From IMG/VR virus record IMGVR_UViG_2734482773_000003, positions 1 to 43,530 of that record: a DNA stretch of 43,530 nt; one strand, given 5' to 3'. Each line of letters begins with the position of its first letter. Position 1 is the stretch's first letter. Below, piece after piece: positions 3,049 through 35,993 of the stretch. Under the pieces are notes generated by a model. It had not been told where the DNA came from. It saw nothing but the letters and a program-made list of their open reading frames with translations, and did not search any database. Source of the stretch: a virus (Duplodnaviria > Heunggongvirae > Uroviricota > Caudoviricetes). A program made the position numbers and the translations under genes.

Positions 3049-3666
3049 TCATGCTGCACGCTCTGTGATTTTCTGAATTTCAGATTCCAGATCTGCAAGG
3101 AAGGTCTTAACCTCAGACTCGATTTCGCGCGCCAGCTCTTCATCGAAATGAATACGCTTCTTGAAATAGGCGAGGTCAGGCGGCAGGCGATCATCGAAAC
3201 TAACGAAATCACACCATTTCCGCCCGGTGCACATCATCTGTGCATGCATTTGCAGCATGTACTGGCGCTTTGGTTCACCGGTTTTCAGCGTTTCGATATG
3301 GGTCCAGGTATTGGGGCATTTGATTTCGATAAGCCCGTCGTCGTTTACAAGTCCGTCCGGGCTGGCTGCGAATCCGGGTATGGTTGGGTGATCGATGAGT
3401 CCAACTTCAGTGATTTCCGCATTGAACTCATTCAGCGCGTACATTTCGCGTGCCACTGGCTCAAGTTCAGTGCCGCGCATCATCGCGGCATTCGAAAACC
3501 CTTCCTCCAGCTTCCCGGTCAGCCGTTGGCAAATCAGCTCGGCCATGTAGTTCTGGCGGCTGGTGGAGTAGCCCGACTTAGTCCGGGCCATGACATCAGC
3601 CAGGCGACTGGCTGTGACCTTGCCGCAGCGCGCAGCAAACCATTCAGGGGTGCGTTGCTCTATCAT
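3049..3666 (-). CDS. YqaJ-like phage exonuclease (lambda Exo-type recombination nuclease)
   Basis: 205-aa ORF, ATG at 3666 with GGAGG upstream; MIEQRTPEWFAARCGKVTASR...IEIKCP matches YqaJ/viral recombinase-exonuclease motifs; adjacent to recT. Confidence 0.8.
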   Translation of the reverse strand: MIEQRTPEWFAARCGKVTASRLADVMARTKSGYSTSRQNYMAELICQRLTGKLEEGFSNAAMMRGTELEPVAREMYALNEFNAEITEVGLIDHPTIPGFAASPDGLVNDDGLIEIKCPNTWTHIETLKTGEPKRQYMLQMHAQMMCTGRKWCDFVSFDDRLPPDLAYFKKRIHFDEELAREIESEVKTFLADLESEIQKITERAA

Positions 3667-5971: not shown

Positions 5972-6126
5972 GCCTTCACCTCAACCTGTTCCAGGAGGCC
6001 AGCCAGCTTCATATGCCAGCGGTTCATCGTCAGCTTTTCACGCGGGTTAGATACCGACGTCAGCTGCCACTCGTTATCGTTGAGCTTTTTGGCGGTGTAC
6101 TGCTTGCCGTTGTGGGTGACTGTCAT
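5968..6126 (-). CDS. hypothetical small phage protein (52 aa)
   Basis: ORF 5968..6168(-); internal ATG at 6126 with AAGGTGG 6 nt upstream; start adjacent to the stop of the upstream gene. Confidence 0.4.
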   Translation of the reverse strand: MTVTHNGKQYTAKKLNDNEWQLTSVSNPREKLTMNRWHMKLAGLLEQVEVKA

Positions 6127-6127
6127 C

Positions 6128-6337
6128 TCACACCACCTTGAATAAGAACCAGCCCATACCGCACACAATCAGGCCCACAATGGTTATTGCGGAAGACATG
6201 CGTACATGGTCAATGGCTAGTTTTGAAAGTGGCTGGCGATGTTCTTTTTTCGTCAGCGAGTTGATTGCTATGCCGAGCAGAAACGTCCCGACAAACCATA
6301 ATGCGTATATCTTTAAGCCCAACTCCAAATCACTCAT
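6128..6337 (-). CDS. small hydrophobic membrane protein (69 aa)
   Basis: ATG at 6337 with AGAGGA upstream; two predicted transmembrane stretches (LKIYALWFVGTFLLGIAI ... AITIVGLIVCGMGWFLF). Confidence 0.45.
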   Translation of the reverse strand: MSDLELGLKIYALWFVGTFLLGIAINSLTKKEHRQPLSKLAIDHVRMSSAITIVGLIVCGMGWFLFKVV

Positions 6338-6470
6338 AAATCCTCTTGGCCTTATCGCGGCGAACGGAACGGTTAATACAAGACTTCAACGCATTTATTC
6401 AGTGTTTCAATGGGCGGTGGATGGCCGCCGGTTGTCATAACTTGAGCCACTCGTAAATGACTCCAGGTAT

Positions 6471-6494
6471 GAAAAAGCCGCTGGTTAGGCGGCT
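6471..6494 (-). terminator. intrinsic terminator (minus strand)
   Basis: hairpin agccgc-tggttag-gcggct 6476..6494 followed on the minus strand by a U-run (A-run 6472..6476 on plus); overlaps the stop of the upstream gene. Confidence 0.45.
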
Positions 6495-6789
6495 ATTGAG
6501 GTTCGCGCGGCTTGTGGTCGAATCGGTGCCACCCGTCAGTTAATTCAAATGGAGCATAACTTTCCCGGCGCTCAGCGAACCCAAGCTCAACAGACAGAGC
6601 GTGCAGCTCATGCCGACGCTTAATCTGTTCCATCGCAATCCAGTCAGCATCGGCATTGCGCTTTTGAGCTTGCTTCGGCGACAGGTCTAAACTGTTTATT
6701 TCACTTAGTTTCTGCTGACGCTTGATGTCCTGTTTCATATTGCGAAGCGCATTTATCATTGAGTCGATGCGCTTGATGTCGTCGATCAT
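6493..6789 (-). CDS. hypothetical phage protein (98 aa)
   Basis: ORF 6493..6885(-); ATG at 6789 (MIDDIKRIDSMINALRNMKQ...); position corresponds to the kil/cIII region of lambdoid phages, but no sequence-based assignment. Confidence 0.45.
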   Translation of the reverse strand: MIDDIKRIDSMINALRNMKQDIKRQQKLSEINSLDLSPKQAQKRNADADWIAMEQIKRRHELHALSVELGFAERRESYAPFELTDGWHRFDHKPREPQ

Positions 6790-6978
6790 CCCCTTACCCT
6801 CTGTCGTTACCCGCTGATGCGGGAGAAATGCTTTGTGGTGCAGCGCCGGGTGCTTATCTTCCGGTTGCCGTCGATGCAGCTGCAATTCACTGCACTACAA
6901 AACATTCCAGTTATTGCCGGGGTATTTATCCGCGCCCGGCGCGCGCTTTCCCGCTATTCCCCAACAGCAAGAAATCGC

Positions 6979-7320
6979 TTACTCTTTAAGCTCCCCAACA
7001 GTAGAAAGGATATGTTCATGCAAACCATGCGGACCGTGTGCCCTGACTGCGGAAGTGAGATGTTCAACCAGCCCGATGATTTTGACTTTGAGACAAATTT
7101 CACCGGCGTCAGTTGTGCTGACTGTGGTCGCGAAATCACTAAGGACGATGTTGTCAATCAGGCCACGGACACGGTCAAAAAACAGATCGACGACATGCTC
7201 AGGAATTCCCTGAAAGGAGCTGGCTGGAAGTTCAAGTAACTTTAAAAGCTCCCCGGTCTGGGTAAGCACTTCGCTGGCGTCTACATTGAGCAGTAGTGGC
7301 GCCATTTTTTTATCTGACAT
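6979..7320 (-). CDS. hypothetical protein, first gene downstream of the pL-type region (113 aa)
   Basis: ATG at 7320 with GAGGGG 5 nt upstream; acidic protein, not arginine-rich like lambda N; overlaps antisense with the zinc-ribbon ORF 7018..7239(+). Confidence 0.35.
   Translation of the reverse strand: MSDKKMAPLLLNVDASEVLTQTGELLKLLELPASSFQGIPEHVVDLFFDRVRGLIDNIVLSDFATTVSTTDAGEICLKVKIIGLVEHLTSAVRAHGPHGLHEHILSTVGELKE
7018..7239 (+). CDS. small zinc-ribbon protein (74 aa), oppositely oriented in the leftward operon
   Basis: ATG at 7018 with AAGGA 7 nt upstream; CPDCG...(22 aa)...CADCG double CxxC motif; overlaps antisense with 6979..7320(-), so the two calls compete. Confidence 0.4.
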   Translation: MQTMRTVCPDCGSEMFNQPDDFDFETNFTGVSCADCGREITKDDVVNQATDTVKKQIDDMLRNSLKGAGWKFK

Positions 7321-7515
7321 ATACACCCCTCTGATTGTTTACCGTCAGCCCCTCGCAAAGAGCTGCTGGTAAATCGTTTAGCCATAATTGCCGCTCTTCC
7401 TGAGCCCGCCTATGGTCCGACGCATGGTTTACTGTCGCGCCGTTCGACTGACCGAATCTCCACTTCGCCGCTGGCTAACTTCGCTCAGCTGTCGATGTTT
7501 CGTTTCGATGGGGTG

Positions 7516-7560
7516 AATTTAGCGTGATGCTAAATTATGCGCAATAGCAAAATGCTAAAT
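7516..7560. promoter_or_regulatory. OL-type repressor operators (pL region)
   Basis: perfect palindrome aatttagc-gtgat-gctaaatt at 7516..7536 and tagca-aaa-tgcta at 7545..7557 (within 7544..7560); same TTTAGC/GCTAAA half-site as in the cI-cro intergenic region. Confidence 0.55.
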
Positions 7561-7630
7561 TGTTGAATGGTTTTATTTAGCGTATTGATTAATAAGCGAT
7601 TAAAAATTTACAGCGAAGGAATTCGGGACG

Positions 7631-7656
7631 TAAAAAAGCCCGCGCGATGGCGGGCT
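7631..7656 (-). terminator. intrinsic terminator downstream of the repressor gene
   Basis: hairpin agcccgc-gcgatg-gcgggct 7637..7656 followed on the minus strand by U6 (A-run 7632..7637 on plus). Confidence 0.55.
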
Positions 7657-7675
7657 TGAGGGGTTTTGCGTGAGG

Positions 7676-8353
7676 TTATGGGATGTTTAGTATTTTGGCA
7701 TCAACCACAACGCCGATGATTTTGCAGTTTCCATTAATTTCTAGCATTGGATATGCGGGGTTAAGGGGCTTTAGGAAGCGTCTGCCGGCATCGATTACAA
7801 GCTTCTTAAAGGTCGCTTCGTTATCGCCTTCTAGCTTCGCGACAACCAGCTTTCCGTTGCGCGGCTCGACTTCAGGATCAACAAGTATCGCTGCTCCCTC
7901 AGGTATGCTCAGTCCAGCCGGGGAGGTCATAGAATCCCCTTTAACGTCCAGCCAGAATGAATCTTCTGAGCAGTCAACAGTCGTGTCATACCAGCGATCT
8001 ATCGCTCTTCGGTGATAAGGTTCTACAGCTTCCATCCATTGCCCCGCGCTTACCCAGCTGATTACAGGATAACTTCCTTTTGTCTCGTTCAGTCCTCGAA
8101 ATGCAACGTTCGAAGGTTCTTCACTGGCGTGTAAAACATCCATCCAGCCAAAAGGCAGATCAAGCGCAGTTTCAATTTTGCGAGCCATCTTATCGCCGAT
8201 ATTGCGATGAGGGTTTGGTCCCAGTAGCTGGCTAAGCGCAGCCGGACTTGTCTCGATGAGCTCGGCAAACTGCGCTTTGGTCATTCCAGACTCGTGCTGA
8301 CGCTTCTCGTACAGCGCTTCCAGGTTGGCTTTTCTGATTTCTTTATTTTCCAT
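7676..8353 (-). CDS. cI: CI-like prophage repressor (HTH N-terminus plus S24 LexA-like autopeptidase C-terminus)
   Basis: ORF 7676..8470(-); ATG at 8353; N-terminal HTH (MTKAQFAELIETSPAALSQLL); C-terminal S24 motifs GDSM (Ser) and KLVV...K (Lys); divergent from the cro-like gene. Confidence 0.85.
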   Translation of the reverse strand: MENKEIRKANLEALYEKRQHESGMTKAQFAELIETSPAALSQLLGPNPHRNIGDKMARKIETALDLPFGWMDVLHASEEPSNVAFRGLNETKGSYPVISWVSAGQWMEAVEPYHRRAIDRWYDTTVDCSEDSFWLDVKGDSMTSPAGLSIPEGAAILVDPEVEPRNGKLVVAKLEGDNEATFKKLVIDAGRRFLKPLNPAYPMLEINGNCKIIGVVVDAKILNIP

Positions 8354-8371
8354 ACCTGCATTGTTACTGCT

Positions 8372-8439
8372 TTTAGCAAAATGATAAATGTGCAAATTGC
8401 TAAATGATGCTTGCGTAGTATTTAGCATAACGCTAAACT
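8372..8439. promoter_or_regulatory. OR-type operators with candidate pR promoter
   Basis: tttagc-aaaat-gataaa 8372..8388 and tttagc-ataac-gctaaa 8421..8437, plus a weaker site near 8388..8404; candidate rightward promoter TTGCGT (8411..8416) - 17 nt - TAAACT (8434..8439) overlapping the last operator. Confidence 0.55.
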
Positions 8440-8469
8440 CCAAATCAAACGACTCACCCGGAGACACCA

Positions 8470-8703
8470 ATGAGCACTGAACTACACCGCTGGCGCAAGG
8501 CCGCCACTACCGACGAATGGGCGCAGCTCGCAAAGTTGGCTAACACGACGCCAGGTTACCTGGACCAGATCGCCTACGGAAATCGCCGGGCATCTCCAGA
8601 AATGGCATCTGCTATCGAGAAAGGCACGAAGAATTTTCACCGCCAGGCTCCGGTCCTAAAAGAAAGCCTGGTATTCGCATCGCCGCGTGATACTGCGGCC
8701 TAA
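8470..8703 (+). CDS. cro: Cro-like HTH regulator (YdaS/Cro type)
   Basis: ATG 8470 with GGAG upstream; HTH-like segment EWAQLAKLANTTPGYLDQIAYGNRRASPEMASAIEKGT; first rightward gene divergent from cI. Confidence 0.7.
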   Translation: MSTELHRWRKAATTDEWAQLAKLANTTPGYLDQIAYGNRRASPEMASAIEKGTKNFHRQAPVLKESLVFASPRDTAA

Positions 8704-8720
8704 CCACGAAAGGGAAAGCA

Positions 8721-9263
8721 ATGCATTCACTTGCGTATCAACACAATACCGGAATACACCCGGGAGCGATGATAAACCGCGCTCAACCTAAGGCGGCGCC
8801 TGACCACGAAAAGATCCGCGATGCGGTCCGGGCATGGTCTTCGGCGCTGGACAATCAGGACGTCGTTTCGGCACTGATCATCAACGAATACCGGGAGCAG
8901 GGCGGGACCGCCATCAGCTTTCCTGACGACATCAGCCGTGCGCGCCAGAAGCTGTTCCGCTTCCTGGATAACCGTTTCGACTCCGAACAGTACCGCGAGA
9001 ACGTGCGCCAGCTGACACCCGCAATCATGTCCGTATTGCCGCTGGAGTACCGCAACCGCCTGGCGCCGCAGAACGACACGATGTCGCTGATCGCTTCTGC
9101 GATGAAAGAGTGTGCTGAAGCTAAACAGGCCGTGCTTTTGGACGCCCCAGAGCATCAGAAGCTGAAAGAGGTAAGCGAGGGTATAGCTTCGCTGTTCCGC
9201 CTCATGCCGGAGCAGGTAGGCCCACTGATGACGATGGTCACGTCGATGCTGGGGGTTATGTGA
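8721..9263 (+). CDS. YdaT-like regulatory protein (CII-position analogue)
   Basis: ATG 8721 with AAGGGA upstream; LTPAIMSVLPLEYRNRL region resembles Rac-prophage YdaT (from memory); sits immediately after cro. Confidence 0.55.
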   Translation: MHSLAYQHNTGIHPGAMINRAQPKAAPDHEKIRDAVRAWSSALDNQDVVSALIINEYREQGGTAISFPDDISRARQKLFRFLDNRFDSEQYRENVRQLTPAIMSVLPLEYRNRLAPQNDTMSLIASAMKECAEAKQAVLLDAPEHQKLKEVSEGIASLFRLMPEQVGPLMTMVTSMLGVM

Positions 9264-9352
9264 TGGGAAGTATCAAAAATGGCGAAAGCCAGTCTGCGCG
9301 AACAGAACTGGCCTTCAGATGCAAATCGTGTGCACTCATTGCAGGAGGAATA

Positions 9353-9499
9353 ATGGCAAAAAATCCACGCTATTACCATACCGCTGTACATAAAAACATA
9401 GCCCGCGACCGCTTCATCCGCTCGGTTAACCCGATTGTGGCAGAGAAGATGCGCGCCATCCTGGAAGAATTGAAACGTAAGGAGAGTGGCCGTGGGTAA
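9353..9499 (+). CDS. small basic protein (48 aa)
   Basis: ORF 9260..9499; internal ATG at 9353 preceded by AGGAGG 6 nt upstream; the earlier in-frame starts lack a Shine-Dalgarno match. Confidence 0.4.
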   Translation: MAKNPRYYHTAVHKNIARDRFIRSVNPIVAEKMRAILEELKRKESGRG

Positions 9500-10391
9500 C
9501 GTATCCAATTTAGCCGAAGCCAGAGAGGCCAGAAGGCTCCAGAAACCGCGCACGAATGACGGTAAGGGGTTTGCCTTGCTGCACCGTAAAATTATGGATG
9601 TGCCGTTCTACAAGGACGCTGAGGCGGCTCATTTATGGGTTCACCTGCTCCTGCGCGCTAATCACGAACAGACACTGGTATCGACTGATGTTGGCGATGT
9701 GATCTGCGAGCGCGGCGAGTTCATCACCGGGCGTAACACGCTGGCAATGGAAACGGGTTTGACCGCTGATCGCGTTAAATCACTGCTCCGTAAATTCCAG
9801 AATCTGGGCATGATCACCACCAAATCGAACAACCGTTTTACTGTTCTAAAAGTGGTCAAATATGACGAATATCAGTCAAATTTTTGTCCAGCCGATGTCC
9901 AGCCAGTGTCCAGCGCAAACGCAGTAATAACAATGCCTGTGGAGGATGTGTGTCCAGCCGATGTCCAGCCGGTGTCCACAGATAACAATATATTAAATAA
10001 CTTACTACCTAAAGGTAGTAAGTATGTCGCAAATGACCAGAACCCCGCTGAAGAGAAAAAGTCCCGTTTGTCATGCGATGAAGTATGGCAATGCCTGAAA
10101 GACGAACTGCCTGAAGCCCGGGGATGGAGATGCCTCACTGATGAGCGACGCAATCTGATCCGCACCTTCTGGGGTAAGGCTAACAAGATTGCCCGCAACC
10201 TGGACGGCAAGCCGATGGATATGGACGGTTTCAGAAGCTATCTGCGATATATCGCTCAAAACTGCCGCTGGATGCTTGAAGACCGACCAGACCAGAAATC
10301 CGGGAAAACCTGGCGCCGCATGAAATTCGATAAGTTCCTGACCGAAAAGCTCTACATCGAAGTGCGCGAGGGGGATCGTGATGACCGCTGA
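9486..10391 (+). CDS. phage replication initiator (O-like)
   Basis: N-terminal GFALLHRKIMDVPFYKDAEAAHLWVHLL matches the phage replication-protein-O N-terminal pattern; iteron array lies inside the gene; stop overlaps the helicase start; start may be GTG 9486 or GTG 9492. Confidence 0.7.
   Translation: MAVGNVSNLAEAREARRLQKPRTNDGKGFALLHRKIMDVPFYKDAEAAHLWVHLLLRANHEQTLVSTDVGDVICERGEFITGRNTLAMETGLTADRVKSLLRKFQNLGMITTKSNNRFTVLKVVKYDEYQSNFCPADVQPVSSANAVITMPVEDVCPADVQPVSTDNNILNNLLPKGSKYVANDQNPAEEKKSRLSCDEVWQCLKDELPEARGWRCLTDERRNLIRTFWGKANKIARNLDGKPMDMDGFRSYLRYIAQNCRWMLEDRPDQKSGKTWRRMKFDKFLTEKLYIEVREGDRDDR
9885..10025. repeat. replication origin: six 9-bp iterons (TGTCCAGCC, 11-bp period) plus AT-rich segment
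   Basis: TGTCCAGCC-like repeats at 9885, 9896, 9907 and 9951, 9962, 9973, followed by AT-rich ataacaatatattaaataacttactacctaaaggtagtaagtat with an inverted repeat; encoded as the duplicated CPADVQPVS peptide. Confidence 0.6.
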
Positions 10392-33062: not shown

Positions 33063-35993
33063 ATGGCAGGTGAGAAAAACGCCGGTAGCATCGTTTATGA
33101 AGTCAGCGCCAATATTGAGCCGCTGCTGCAGGGCGGTAAACAGGCCATTGATGCTCTGGATAAACTGGATGCTGCAGCCCAGCAGTCCGGGAAGGGAATG
33201 GATAACCTCGACCAGAGCACGTCTCAAACCGGATCCGCTTTTACTGAACTGGCTGGTTATGCCAATTCCATGGATAACCAGCTGCGCAAGCTGAACACCA
33301 ACGTGAGCGGAATTGCCCGCGCTATGGAAGAGGCCCGCAGCGGTACCGGCGGCGCGAGCAGTGAATTCAGTCGCGCAGAATCAATCATCGAGGCGCTGGG
33401 TAACCAGCTGGCTGTGCTGGACGAAGCGCAGGAGAATGGCGCGCGTAGTGCCGCGGTTCTGGCAGCCCAGCTCCGAGCCGGGTCAAAAGCTACAGACGAA
33501 GAGAAGCAGAAGATCGGCGAATTGACTGGGCGGCTCTTCGACATGAAAGGCGCTGCTGATACCTCGATGGGCAGTAATAAAGGCTGGAAGGCCAGCATGC
33601 AGCAGGCTGGTTATCAGGTTCAGGATTTCATAGTACAGGTGCAGGGCGGCCAGTCTGCGCTGGTGGCGTTCGCTCAGCAGGGGTCTCAACTCGCTGGTGC
33701 ATTCGGTCCCGGCGGCGCAGTCGTTGGTGCCATAATCGCGCTTGGTTCGGTGCTGGCTGGCGTGCTGATTACTTCGCTGAATGGCGGCAAGAATGCCATG
33801 GATGCGCTGAAAGACGCAGCTGAAGCGATGGATAAGGTTATCACCATTTCATCGCAAGGCGTGGCCGCGCTTTCCGACAAGTATGCTGCCCTGGCGCGCG
33901 TAAATGCCGACGTGGCTACTTTGCTGAGAAATCAGGCACTGCTCGAGTATAACCAGGCGATCTCAAAGATTCCTAAAGCCATTAGTGACGCGTCTGATGC
34001 TTTCATTACGTTAGGCGATCGCGCACTGGCGGCTGTTGGCGGTGCGTCTCCAAGCATCAAAAAGTTCAACGATGAGCTTTCTGCGCTTGGCGTTACCACA
34101 AATGACTGGAGCCAGGCCATTCAACAGGCCAACAGTCAGGGGCAATATGCCTCTGGCATTGTGAACTCTTTATCTTCAACGGTCAGCACGCTTTCTTCAC
34201 GCCTCGGCATCAGCAAGCAATCAGCGTTTGATCTTGCAAGAGAGTTATCAGACCTGAGCAACAACCCGTCGCCTGAAGCACTTCAGGAACTGGCGAAAAA
34301 GCTCCAGGAAATGAAGTCCTCCTCCAAAGATGGGCAGTCAGCCATTGCTGAGCTGGCTGGTAAACTTGTCGATCTGGCAAGAGAGGCAGCCAATGCGAAG
34401 ATCAATGTAGACAGCCTGAATAAGTCCACGGATAACCTTACCGCCGGACAGAAGAACCTGATCAAACAGTCCGAGCGCAACCTGGCACTCTCGAAGTTGC
34501 AGGGCGAGGCTCGCGCACGGTTGCAGGCGCAATACGCTGCCGAAGATGCTGGATTTGCGAAGGATGATCCGCATGCCAAGCAGATGGAAGATGATGCTGC
34601 CGCTACGTACAAAAATACGGAAGAGCAAAAGAAGCTTAAATCGGAGCAGAAAAAAGGAGCATCTCAGGCAGAAACCATTGCTCAGAAGCTGGCGAACCTG
34701 AAACAGCAGTCAGAACTCGCTGCCTATTCAACGAATAAGCTGAGCCGAGAGCAGGCTATTCTGAATGCGCAGCAGTCGCTCGGGAAAGGTGCCACCAAAG
34801 AGCAGATAGCACTTGCCGGTCAGTATGCGGCCAAAAAATGGGACACCGCCAACGCCATTAAGGCTCAGGCTGCAGCGGAGAAACTTCTTCCTGAGGCCCG
34901 CGAGAACGCCAGCTACAGGCAGGATGTTGAGGACCTGAATACCGCTCTGGCTGCGAAGAAAATCAGTCAGGAGCAGTTCAATCAGACATCCGAGCGACTG
35001 GAAGCAACTCACCAGGCCAACCTTGCGAAAATCCGTGCCGATCAGGCTGTCAGCCCACTGCAGGAAGCTGCTGGCGGTGTGGATCCGGTGCAGCAACTGG
35101 CGAATGAAAATGCCCGAAAACTCGCGCTTATTCAGGCTTACGAGCAGCAGGGGATTATTACTCACCAGAACGCGCTTATGCTGCGCGCATCAGCTGACAG
35201 GGAGTACGAGCAGGCTCGCATCGCGGCGCAATGGGAGATTTTCCGTAACCAGAGCGCAGGCAATGAAGCGCTGGCGGCGTCCTTTGATGCACTGGCCGGT
35301 AATGCGTCCAATGCCTTAACCGGCATCATCACCGGGAGCATGTCAGCTTCCGATGCTCTGCGCTCGATCGGGAATACCGTACTGAACAGCCTCATCAACA
35401 CCTTCGTCCAGATGGGCGTTGAGTGGGTTAAATCGGCAATCATGGGGCAGACGGCCACCACTGCAGCGGTTGCAGCATCTACCACGGCGCAGGCAGCAGG
35501 CATTGCCACTACCACGGCGACGTCTACCGCGGCGGCGGCGGCCACAACTGCAGCATGGACGCCAGCGGCCATCATGTCCTCCATTGCGTCATTCGGTGGA
35601 GCGGTGGCGATCGGCATCGGAGCTATGGCTGGCATCCTGGCACTGTCAGGAAAGCGTAAGAACGGCGGGCCGGTTAGTGCAAGCGGAATGTATCAGGTCG
35701 GCGAAGGTGGAATGCCGGAGATTTACCAGGCCAGCACCGGTAAGCAGTACATGATACCGGGCGACAACGGCAAGGTGATCAGCAACAAGGAAATGACTGC
35801 CGGAGGCGGTGGCGGGGTAATTTTGAATATCAACAATTACTCTTCAGCGTCGGTCGATGCACAGGCTACGCAGGGCAGTGACGGCACCTGGACTATCGAT
35901 ACATTCATCGCTGACATGAATAATGGTGGACCAGCAAGCCAGGCTATTACCAGCAATTTGAACGTTAAGCGCACGCCAAGGGGGCAGGGCTGA
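33063..35993 (+). CDS. tail tape measure protein
   Basis: 976 aa, largely alpha-helical Ala/Gln/Leu-rich with hydrophobic Gly/Ala segments; canonical position after the chaperone. Confidence 0.85.
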   Translation: MAGEKNAGSIVYEVSANIEPLLQGGKQAIDALDKLDAAAQQSGKGMDNLDQSTSQTGSAFTELAGYANSMDNQLRKLNTNVSGIARAMEEARSGTGGASSEFSRAESIIEALGNQLAVLDEAQENGARSAAVLAAQLRAGSKATDEEKQKIGELTGRLFDMKGAADTSMGSNKGWKASMQQAGYQVQDFIVQVQGGQSALVAFAQQGSQLAGAFGPGGAVVGAIIALGSVLAGVLITSLNGGKNAMDALKDAAEAMDKVITISSQGVAALSDKYAALARVNADVATLLRNQALLEYNQAISKIPKAISDASDAFITLGDRALAAVGGASPSIKKFNDELSALGVTTNDWSQAIQQANSQGQYASGIVNSLSSTVSTLSSRLGISKQSAFDLARELSDLSNNPSPEALQELAKKLQEMKSSSKDGQSAIAELAGKLVDLAREAANAKINVDSLNKSTDNLTAGQKNLIKQSERNLALSKLQGEARARLQAQYAAEDAGFAKDDPHAKQMEDDAAATYKNTEEQKKLKSEQKKGASQAETIAQKLANLKQQSELAAYSTNKLSREQAILNAQQSLGKGATKEQIALAGQYAAKKWDTANAIKAQAAAEKLLPEARENASYRQDVEDLNTALAAKKISQEQFNQTSERLEATHQANLAKIRADQAVSPLQEAAGGVDPVQQLANENARKLALIQAYEQQGIITHQNALMLRASADREYEQARIAAQWEIFRNQSAGNEALAASFDALAGNASNALTGIITGSMSASDALRSIGNTVLNSLINTFVQMGVEWVKSAIMGQTATTAAVAASTTAQAAGIATTTATSTAAAAATTAAWTPAAIMSSIASFGGAVAIGIGAMAGILALSGKRKNGGPVSASGMYQVGEGGMPEIYQASTGKQYMIPGDNGKVISNKEMTAGGGGGVILNINNYSSASVDAQATQGSDGTWTIDTFIADMNNGGPASQAITSNLNVKRTPRGQG

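Follow-up and report, generated by a model that had tools for sequence, protein, structure and literature searches.

Two antisense open reading frames sharing the same DNA in the early-left region of a lambdoid prophage are probably both genes

The existence of long antisense open reading frames (ORFs) as real protein genes in bacteria and phages is disputed, and annotation pipelines routinely delete one member of such a pair. The question arises at a locus in the window examined here, namely the whole 43,530-nucleotide stretch of the IMG/VR record IMGVR_UViG_2734482773_000003 (Caudoviricetes). The first-pass annotation of this window described two mutually antisense ORFs at 6979–7326, each with its own Shine-Dalgarno (SD) sequence, and asked whether only one of them is real or whether they form a genuine overlapping pair. 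Inspection of the sequence confirmed the presence of both, with the minus-strand ATG at 7320 preceded by GAGGGG and the plus-strand ATG at 7018 preceded by AAGGA. Public databases already disagree on the locus. PGAP calls the plus ORF alone in most E. coli genomes, phage annotators list the minus ORF and not the plus ORF in the records of HK639 and the Klebsiella phage ST974, and the gene calls of a few genomes include both.

The window derives from an E. coli lambdoid prophage; positions 6960–7340 are 100% identical to several E. coli chromosomes, and positions 6794–7511, which span putL and the minus ORF, are approximately 93% identical to phage HK639. In the HK639 record, a putative pL precedes a putL-like antiterminator RNA, which in turn precedes HK639_45, the counterpart of the minus ORF. 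Transfer of the HK639 annotation (L001 3036–3161) placed the putL-like RNA at 7317–7442 on the minus strand, with its 3′ end overlapping the SD sequence and start of the minus ORF. Window positions 7326–7510 were nearly identical to the HK639 putL-like region and aligned with it without gaps, as expected of the sequence of an HK022-type put element; the antitermination activity itself is inferred. Judged from these similarities, the window has a leftward operon of the HK639/HK022 put-RNA type in which the minus ORF is the first to follow the putL-like RNA, as in HK639, in agreement with its initial placement at the head of the leftward operon. An Rfam scan of positions 6000–9500 returned no put family and nothing relevant; the only match, a sub-threshold Trp leader at the repressor terminator, is almost certainly spurious.

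To the right of the putL-like region lies a LexA/CI-type repressor gene (7676–8470, minus strand), which is followed by a terminator-like hairpin with a T-run (7657–7636, minus strand). The expected pL site (7510–7610) is unlike its HK639 counterpart; ATGCTAAATT occurs there twice and may represent operators belonging to another immunity type. On the other side of the locus, approximately 130 nt to the left of the minus stop, a strong intrinsic terminator on the minus strand (GGCTGCC...GGCGGCC, then T6) is present in many lineages (L076, L161, L008, L100, L218, L219, L106 and L224) and absent from the window. It lies immediately past the module and fits a terminator that a put- or N-modified polymerase must read through.

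The plus ORF (7018–7239, plus strand) runs from ATG 7018, with its SD sequence AAGGA at 7006–7010, to the TAA at 7237–7239. Its translation, MQTMRTVCPDCGSEMFNQPDDFDFETNFTGVSCADCGREITKDDVVNQATDTVKKQIDDMLRNSLKGAGWKFK, is 73 residues long (not 74, as originally reported), has a pI of 4.5 and contains CPDCG at residues 8–12 and CADCG at residues 33–37 (C8/C11 and C33/C36), followed by a C-terminal helix. The protein is a member of NCBIfam NF047912 (ECs_2282_CxxC), which it matched over residues 7–63 with 83.3 bits (E 7.9e-24) against a curated cut-off of 37 bits; in E. coli genomes, PGAP names it “ECs_2282 family putative zinc-binding protein”. The cysteine columns with the two-CxxC spacing of a zinc ribbon were invariant or nearly invariant among 84 unique sequences and in remote relatives, and both ORFs recurred in approximately 230 fetched loci that form 23 protein clusters. 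The family score and this recurrence bore out the initial impression that the CxxC spacing is unlikely by chance. On the evidence of these comparisons, the plus gene was shown to encode a strongly conserved small zinc-ribbon protein, the expression and function of which are untested.

The minus ORF (6979–7320, minus strand) encodes a 113-residue homologue of HK639 gp45 (HK639_45) and extends from ATG 7320 (the complement of CAT at 7318–7320), 5 nt downstream of GAGGGG, to the stop at 6981–6979. The ORF list placed the start two codons earlier, at GTG 7326 (115 residues); the start conserved among relatives is ATG 7320. The first-pass annotation had described the product as an acidic 113-residue protein. 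The length was correct, and the acidity proved to be only mild (pI 5.2, with 16 acidic and 9 basic residues). The protein is hydrophobic, as expected of the complement of a hydrophilic protein. In every diverged lineage, including those with unrelated upstream DNA, GAGG or GGAG was present 5–9 nt upstream of the minus ATG. In N-type phages the minus ORF begins 3–4 nt past the preceding gene, which in L235 is N. Minus codons 2–27 (7240–7317, minus strand) do not overlap the plus ORF and encode the motif AP[LI]x[LI]x[VI]DA[ST]E[VA]xxQxxE[LI]L, of which the portion AP[LI]x[LI]x[VI]DA[ST]E[VA]xxQ is kept in Yersinia, Kluyvera, Klebsiella and more remote members. The C-terminal end and stop position differ among lineages. 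In some lineages (L006 and L218 of Yersinia; P0044) the ORF is approximately 158 residues long and carries, ahead of the usual start, a fused additional N-terminal domain of some 45 residues.

The plus gene is flanked by elements that are predicted to act in plus-strand RNA. An intrinsic-terminator-like hairpin (GGCGTCTAC / GTAGTGGCGCC; 7276–7303) followed by seven T's, together spanning 7276–7311 on the plus strand, lies 37 nt past the plus stop, within minus codons 4–15. The hairpin is conserved across lineages, with an RNAalifold consensus energy of −10.2 kcal/mol on the plus strand versus −3.5 kcal/mol on the minus strand, and a U-G wobble occurs in 12 of 17 lineages where the minus strand would have an A-C mismatch. 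A consensus terminator scan flagged the 7276–7311 site in L218 and L224. The arms of this hairpin encode the conserved A-P and D-A of the minus protein and the T-run encodes K-K; we infer that the wobble lets the stem coexist with the Asp and Pro codons. At the other end of the gene, hairpin H1 (GCCGGG-N13-CCCGGC; 6916–6940, plus strand) lies approximately 78 nt 5′ of the plus ATG. Compensatory changes were seen in 4 of its 6 pairs, its covariation score exceeded that of 499 of 500 shuffles, and it was predicted on the plus strand only (9 wobble cells, versus 1 possible on the minus strand). H1 probably belongs to the 5′ leader of the mRNA for the zinc-ribbon protein. A second candidate hairpin upstream of the plus gene, H2, was not supported by shuffle controls. 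Two copies of TTCCCCAACAG(C/T)A.GAAA (6957–6974 and 6991–7009, plus strand) precede the gene, the second running into the plus SD sequence, and both change together to TTCCACAG..A.GGAA in Yersinia-type lineages; this joint change suggests a protein-binding site or an SD-sequestering structure, either of which remains a prediction. Scans for consensus sigma-70 promoters found none for the plus gene. As its flanking leader and terminator hairpins are predicted to work in plus-strand RNA alone, the plus gene has the appearance of a transcription unit of its own, set backwards in the operon, for which transcript data are lacking.

Annotated starts and ends of the plus ORF vary among records. A second in-frame ATG, at 7012, is not conserved among relatives. 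In L007 (E. coli L73), PGAP placed the start of the CDS (3101–3280, equivalent to window 7060–7239) at an internal Met, giving 59 residues and losing the first CxxC; other records lengthen the CDS upstream to 109–120 residues. The conserved start is ATG 7018. No stop interrupts the plus frame of the window for 140 codons from ATG 6817 (6817–7239, plus strand), across H1 and the repeats. Since this extension is not conserved outside the HK639-like group, it looks accidental and not like part of a longer protein. A run of six A's in GTCAAAAAACAG (7175–7186) is the point at which frameshifted C-termini begin in the database proteins P0014 and P0016–P0018, which may be sequencing errors or pseudogenes; an indel at this homopolymer would break both ORFs at once.

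The plus ORF lies wholly within the minus ORF and shares its codon boundaries, with plus positions 1, 2 and 3 opposite minus positions 3, 2 and 1, respectively. Long accidental “shadow” ORFs arise most readily in the codon-aligned antisense frame. This frame closes only where the plus frame has TTA, CTA or TCA, which makes a shadow ORF a serious alternative to a real minus gene. To examine selection on the two frames, we gathered loci by means of the plus protein, reduced them to 84 unique sequences, and counted changes on a codon alignment with a neighbour-joining tree and parsimony ancestral states, neither of which takes account of recombination (phage mosaicism). Within the overlap (minus codons 29–100), the changes at minus positions 1/2/3 numbered 337/79/141, which are 141/79/337 at plus positions 1/2/3; the excess at plus position 3 (minus position 1) is the signature of a plus-strand gene. 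In the 26 N-terminal minus codons beyond the plus stop, the corresponding numbers were 116/90/180, with an excess at minus position 3, the signature of a minus-strand gene. The plus-frame omega in the overlap was 0.22–0.24 (95% interval 0.15–0.31). In the N-terminal part, the omega of the minus frame was 0.66 (95% CI 0.50–0.85) and that of the antisense control frame was 1.23 (95% interval 0.97–1.61).

The N-terminal signal persisted when the codons of the hairpin arms were removed (omega 0.72, 0.54–0.93) and when only codons 17–27 were considered (0.58, 0.39–0.83), which excluded conservation at the RNA level as the sole cause of N-terminal conservation in the minus protein. Part of the conservation of AP and DA may nevertheless be at the RNA level, since these residues, the most strongly conserved of the N-terminus, coincide with the arms of the plus terminator. 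For the minus frame within the overlap, the ratio of changes that alter both proteins to those that alter the plus protein only (NN/NS) was 0.68 (0.47–1.01), and the ratio of changes that alter the minus protein only to those that alter neither (SN/SS) was 0.71 (0.51–1.08), with bootstrap intervals that touch 1. Stop-creating changes in the minus frame were expected about 9 times in the overlap and about 10 times in the N-terminal part, and at most one was inferred in each. Purifying selection was thus detected in each frame, with that on the minus frame within the overlap being significant only against the simulated null described below. As far as these alignments can tell, the two frames are unequally constrained, the plus frame dominating the overlap and the amino-acid constraint on the minus frame there being weak (approximately 0.7).

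The null for this comparison was plus-only evolution on the same tree under a site-specific mutation-selection model that was purpose-built for this analysis and tuned to the observed plus synonymous and non-synonymous counts. Two runs were carried out, with 250 replicates without codon bias and 200 with the codon bias of the flanking genes. All 84 sequences in the data were open in the minus frame; every sequence was open in none of the replicates of either run (0/250 and 0/200, or 0/450), and on average only 33–38% of the simulated sequences kept the frame open. The null median of NN/NS was 0.95 versus the observed 0.68 (p about 0.004 or less), and the observed SN/SS of 0.71 gave p values of 0.03–0.08 against the same null. 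Together, TTA and CTA account for 25% of the Leu codons of the flanking genes, and TCA for 22% of their Ser codons. All three are absent from the plus ORF; they reappear in L224, where the minus ORF has been lost. Codon bias was accordingly rejected as the reason for the missing codons, as they are common in the flanking genes and return in L224. For the minus gene, the comparative data show that the ribosome-binding site and start codon are conserved, that the N-terminal peptide is under selection, and that selection holds the frame open over the full length of the antisense gene, insofar as such properties can be read from sequence alignments.

The two ORFs were then compared in their distribution. 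Homology searches with either translation gave matches, as homologous DNA must. The minus ORF was kept in every member of 15 of the 17 clusters ascertained by the plus protein, and the plus ORF was kept in all six ascertained by the minus protein. The latter came from a minus-protein profile search, which returned 35 clusters at 50% identity, and DNA was fetched for six of the most remote. All six loci contained a 67–77-residue double-CxxC ORF in the same antisense register that aligned nearly without gaps to the zinc ribbon of the window, with identities to the window of 26–42% for the plus proteins and 24–36% for the minus proteins. Columns with Cys, Gly, Pro, Phe and Asp of the plus protein were invariant while the opposing minus residues alternated, for example T/A opposite Cys. 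The retention of the four Cys codons cannot be attributed to minus-only selection, which would need one particular third base in Ala/Thr codons; the retention of the ORF, start and peptide motif outside the plus gene cannot be attributed to plus-only selection. As neither suffices, selection on both frames is indicated. According to the first-pass annotation, a pair would be refuted if homologues existed for a single frame and relatives had the other frame disrupted. This outcome was not obtained, since the search with each protein recovered the other ORF. The initial question of one real gene or a genuine pair is accordingly answered in favor of the pair, both frames being open in nearly every relative and each having its own evidence of selection.

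Three loci are exceptions to the joint preservation of intact ORFs across diverged relatives. In L224 the plus ORF is intact and the put-like RNA and a strong plus terminator are kept, and the minus ORF has lost its start and SD sequence and contains several stops. In L233 the plus ORF is intact and the minus ORF is broken. In L235 (Duffyella) the minus ORF is intact and the plus ORF is truncated past the zinc ribbon. These loci show some independence of the two ORFs. The pair also occurs in varied settings: it sits between kilR and racR in Rac-type prophages, and it is found after N and next to an IS1595 transposase. In one phage contig (L229, 2501–2785) it lies between a KilA-N/ORF11CD3 gene and a tape-measure gene, outside the early-left region, in a moron-like position. 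From these varied settings, the pair appears to behave as a mobile module that is not tied to put, as it is also present in N-type and Rac-type phages.

Could a single gene account for these observations? If only the plus gene were functional, the minus ORF would be a shadow, open because the plus gene lacks TTA, CTA and TCA. An overlap that evolves essentially as a plus-strand gene with weak minus amino-acid constraint would be in keeping with this, as would the PGAP annotation of the plus ORF alone in most E. coli genomes and the absence of an intact minus ORF from L224 and L233. We nevertheless consider it very unlikely, because 27 minus codons beyond the plus gene have their own coding periodicity, an omega below 1 and no stops, the minus SD sequence and ATG are kept in unrelated upstream contexts, none of the 450 simulations left every sequence open, and the minus ORF is packed into operons 3–4 nt after N and kept at 24–36% identity. 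The converse, in which the minus ORF (HK639 gp45) is the sole gene and the plus ORF with its CxxC motifs mirrors conserved minus codons, can hardly be maintained at all. It predicts the opposite of the observed concentration of substitutions on minus first positions, and it does not explain why Cys codons that need specific third bases of minus Ala/Thr codons are invariant down to 26% identity, why the plus ORF persists without an intact minus ORF in L224 and L233 and matches a curated family, or why terminator and leader hairpins exist on the plus strand. Its support is limited to the place of the minus ORF in operon order behind putL and to the HK639 authors and a Klebsiella phage record having annotated only that ORF.

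A different alternative accepts that the minus ORF is translated and proposes that only its N-terminal peptide or the act of translation matters, the C-terminal 85 residues forming no functional domain; translation might protect or couple the pL transcript or prevent pairing with the plus mRNA. An omega of approximately 0.7 in the overlap with intervals reaching 1, the variable stop position and the lack of a recognisable fold are all compatible with this alternative, which also predicts an open frame. We judge it unlikely, though less so than the plus-only explanation, since the NN/NS value departs from the plus-only null (p about 0.004 or less) and the ORF always spans essentially the whole plus gene, without varied end points inside it; the AlphaFold pairing of the N-terminus with strands encoded in the overlap adds weak evidence in the same direction. 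Taken together, we think it probable that each ORF is a real gene, that the two occupy common DNA in exact antisense register and that they move as a single module in the early-left region of temperate phages, a reading drawn from comparative data in the absence of expression data. The signs that both strands are transcribed and translated are only indirect, namely an SD sequence and ATG on each and the plus-strand hairpins.

Structure prediction and family searches did not assign functions to the products. AlphaFold modeled the plus protein with low confidence (pLDDT 63) as a zinc-ribbon-like N-terminal part and a long C-terminal helix. For the minus protein, one of five models (pLDDT 76) showed a beta-alpha-alpha-beta-beta-alpha arrangement, in which the N-terminal strand pairs with strands encoded in the overlap; this is the weak evidence mentioned above. 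No relatives of the minus-protein model were found in PDB or BFVD. PDB sequence searches returned nothing for the minus protein and only generic zinc ribbons for the plus protein. The minus protein had no match in Pfam or PADLOC and only phrog_29546 (E 7e-4) in PHROGs. The plus protein matched PDC-M14A of PADLOC weakly (E 7e-6, 24 bits), which is a lead only, and scored below the cut-offs of the Lar and MqsA(YgiT) families (TIGR03655, 17 bits against 39.6; TIGR03830, 16.9 against 61.8; TIGR03831, 16.7 against 20.2). Homology thus gives no function for either protein, the candidate matches of the plus protein (generic zinc ribbon, Lar, MqsA and PADLOC) being sub-threshold.

The orientation of the plus gene against the operon had been likened to that of sieB-type genes, and the likeness proved to hold for position and orientation and not for sequence. 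In lambda, sieB (34482–35036, plus strand) comes directly after N (35037–35438, minus strand) in the leftward direction, and SieB is an exclusion protein expressed from the prophage. The plus gene resembles the sieB-type genes of lambda, Rac and P22 in being an opposite-strand gene within the early-left operon, directly after the antitermination element; this placement just downstream of the early-left antiterminator satisfies the positional definition of a sieB-type gene. In contrast to the plus protein, SieB is larger, lacks a zinc ribbon and has no sequence similarity to it, and no SieB family was present among the Pfam, PHROG and NCBIfam matches of either protein. Furthermore, no conserved ORF is annotated opposite lambda sieB, whereas the strand opposite the zinc-ribbon gene carries one.

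Compared with the HK639/HK022 put module, the window shares the HK639_45 homologue and the putL-like region. In the HK639 record, the minus ORF is entered alone, as a hypothetical gene, with no reference to a zinc-ribbon gene opposite it; NF047912 includes the plus protein, but its name assigns no function and its description gives no hint of a location opposite another ORF. No description of ECs_2282, HK639 gp45 or the present pair was found in the literature. Antisense-embedded protein-coding ORFs have been argued to be functional in E. coli O157:H7 and Pseudomonas aeruginosa (PMC9927249; PMC8850804), those of P. aeruginosa being described as evolutionarily novel (PMC8850804). Those cases rest mainly on RNA-seq and Ribo-seq, whereas the present pair rests on comparative evidence without expression data and, unlike them, is co-conserved down to approximately 25–40% identity, moves between phages as a unit and is reciprocally recoverable. 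Antisense overlapping genes are a known and contested kind, from which this pair differs by its deep co-conservation, its mobility and the reciprocal comparative evidence behind it.

If both ORFs are genes, their positions suggest how they would be used. The minus gene comes first behind pL and the put antiterminator RNA or, in N-type phages, directly behind N. By inference, pL is repressed in the lysogen and, after induction, becomes strongly active with a termination-resistant polymerase. Because pL would be off in the lysogen and on after induction, and because the plus unit appears complete and opposed to pL, the two strands would probably take turns in being expressed. The resident prophage would supply the zinc-ribbon protein, in the manner of lambda sieB, which has the equivalent location, and the minus protein would belong to the early lytic phase, in which leftward transcription would shut off the plus gene through collisions and antisense pairing. 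A further step, for which we hold out little expectation, is that the two products work together, the zinc-ribbon protein and the protein from the complementary strand binding or counteracting each other as an ancient module of two proteins from one duplex. They could then be, for example, a prophage-state factor and its lytic-state antagonist, with mutual antisense transcription as the switch. If true, such a partnership would be a natural, deeply conserved instance of functional sense-antisense protein partners.

The pair as such is old and mobile, and is present in the culturable phage HK639 and in common prophages of E. coli, Klebsiella and Enterobacter. If confirmed, it would provide a clean model for two proteins, a terminator and a ribosome-binding site sharing the same bases, and for how overprinted genes persist and how functions of the lysogenic and lytic states might be placed on opposite strands of a prophage.
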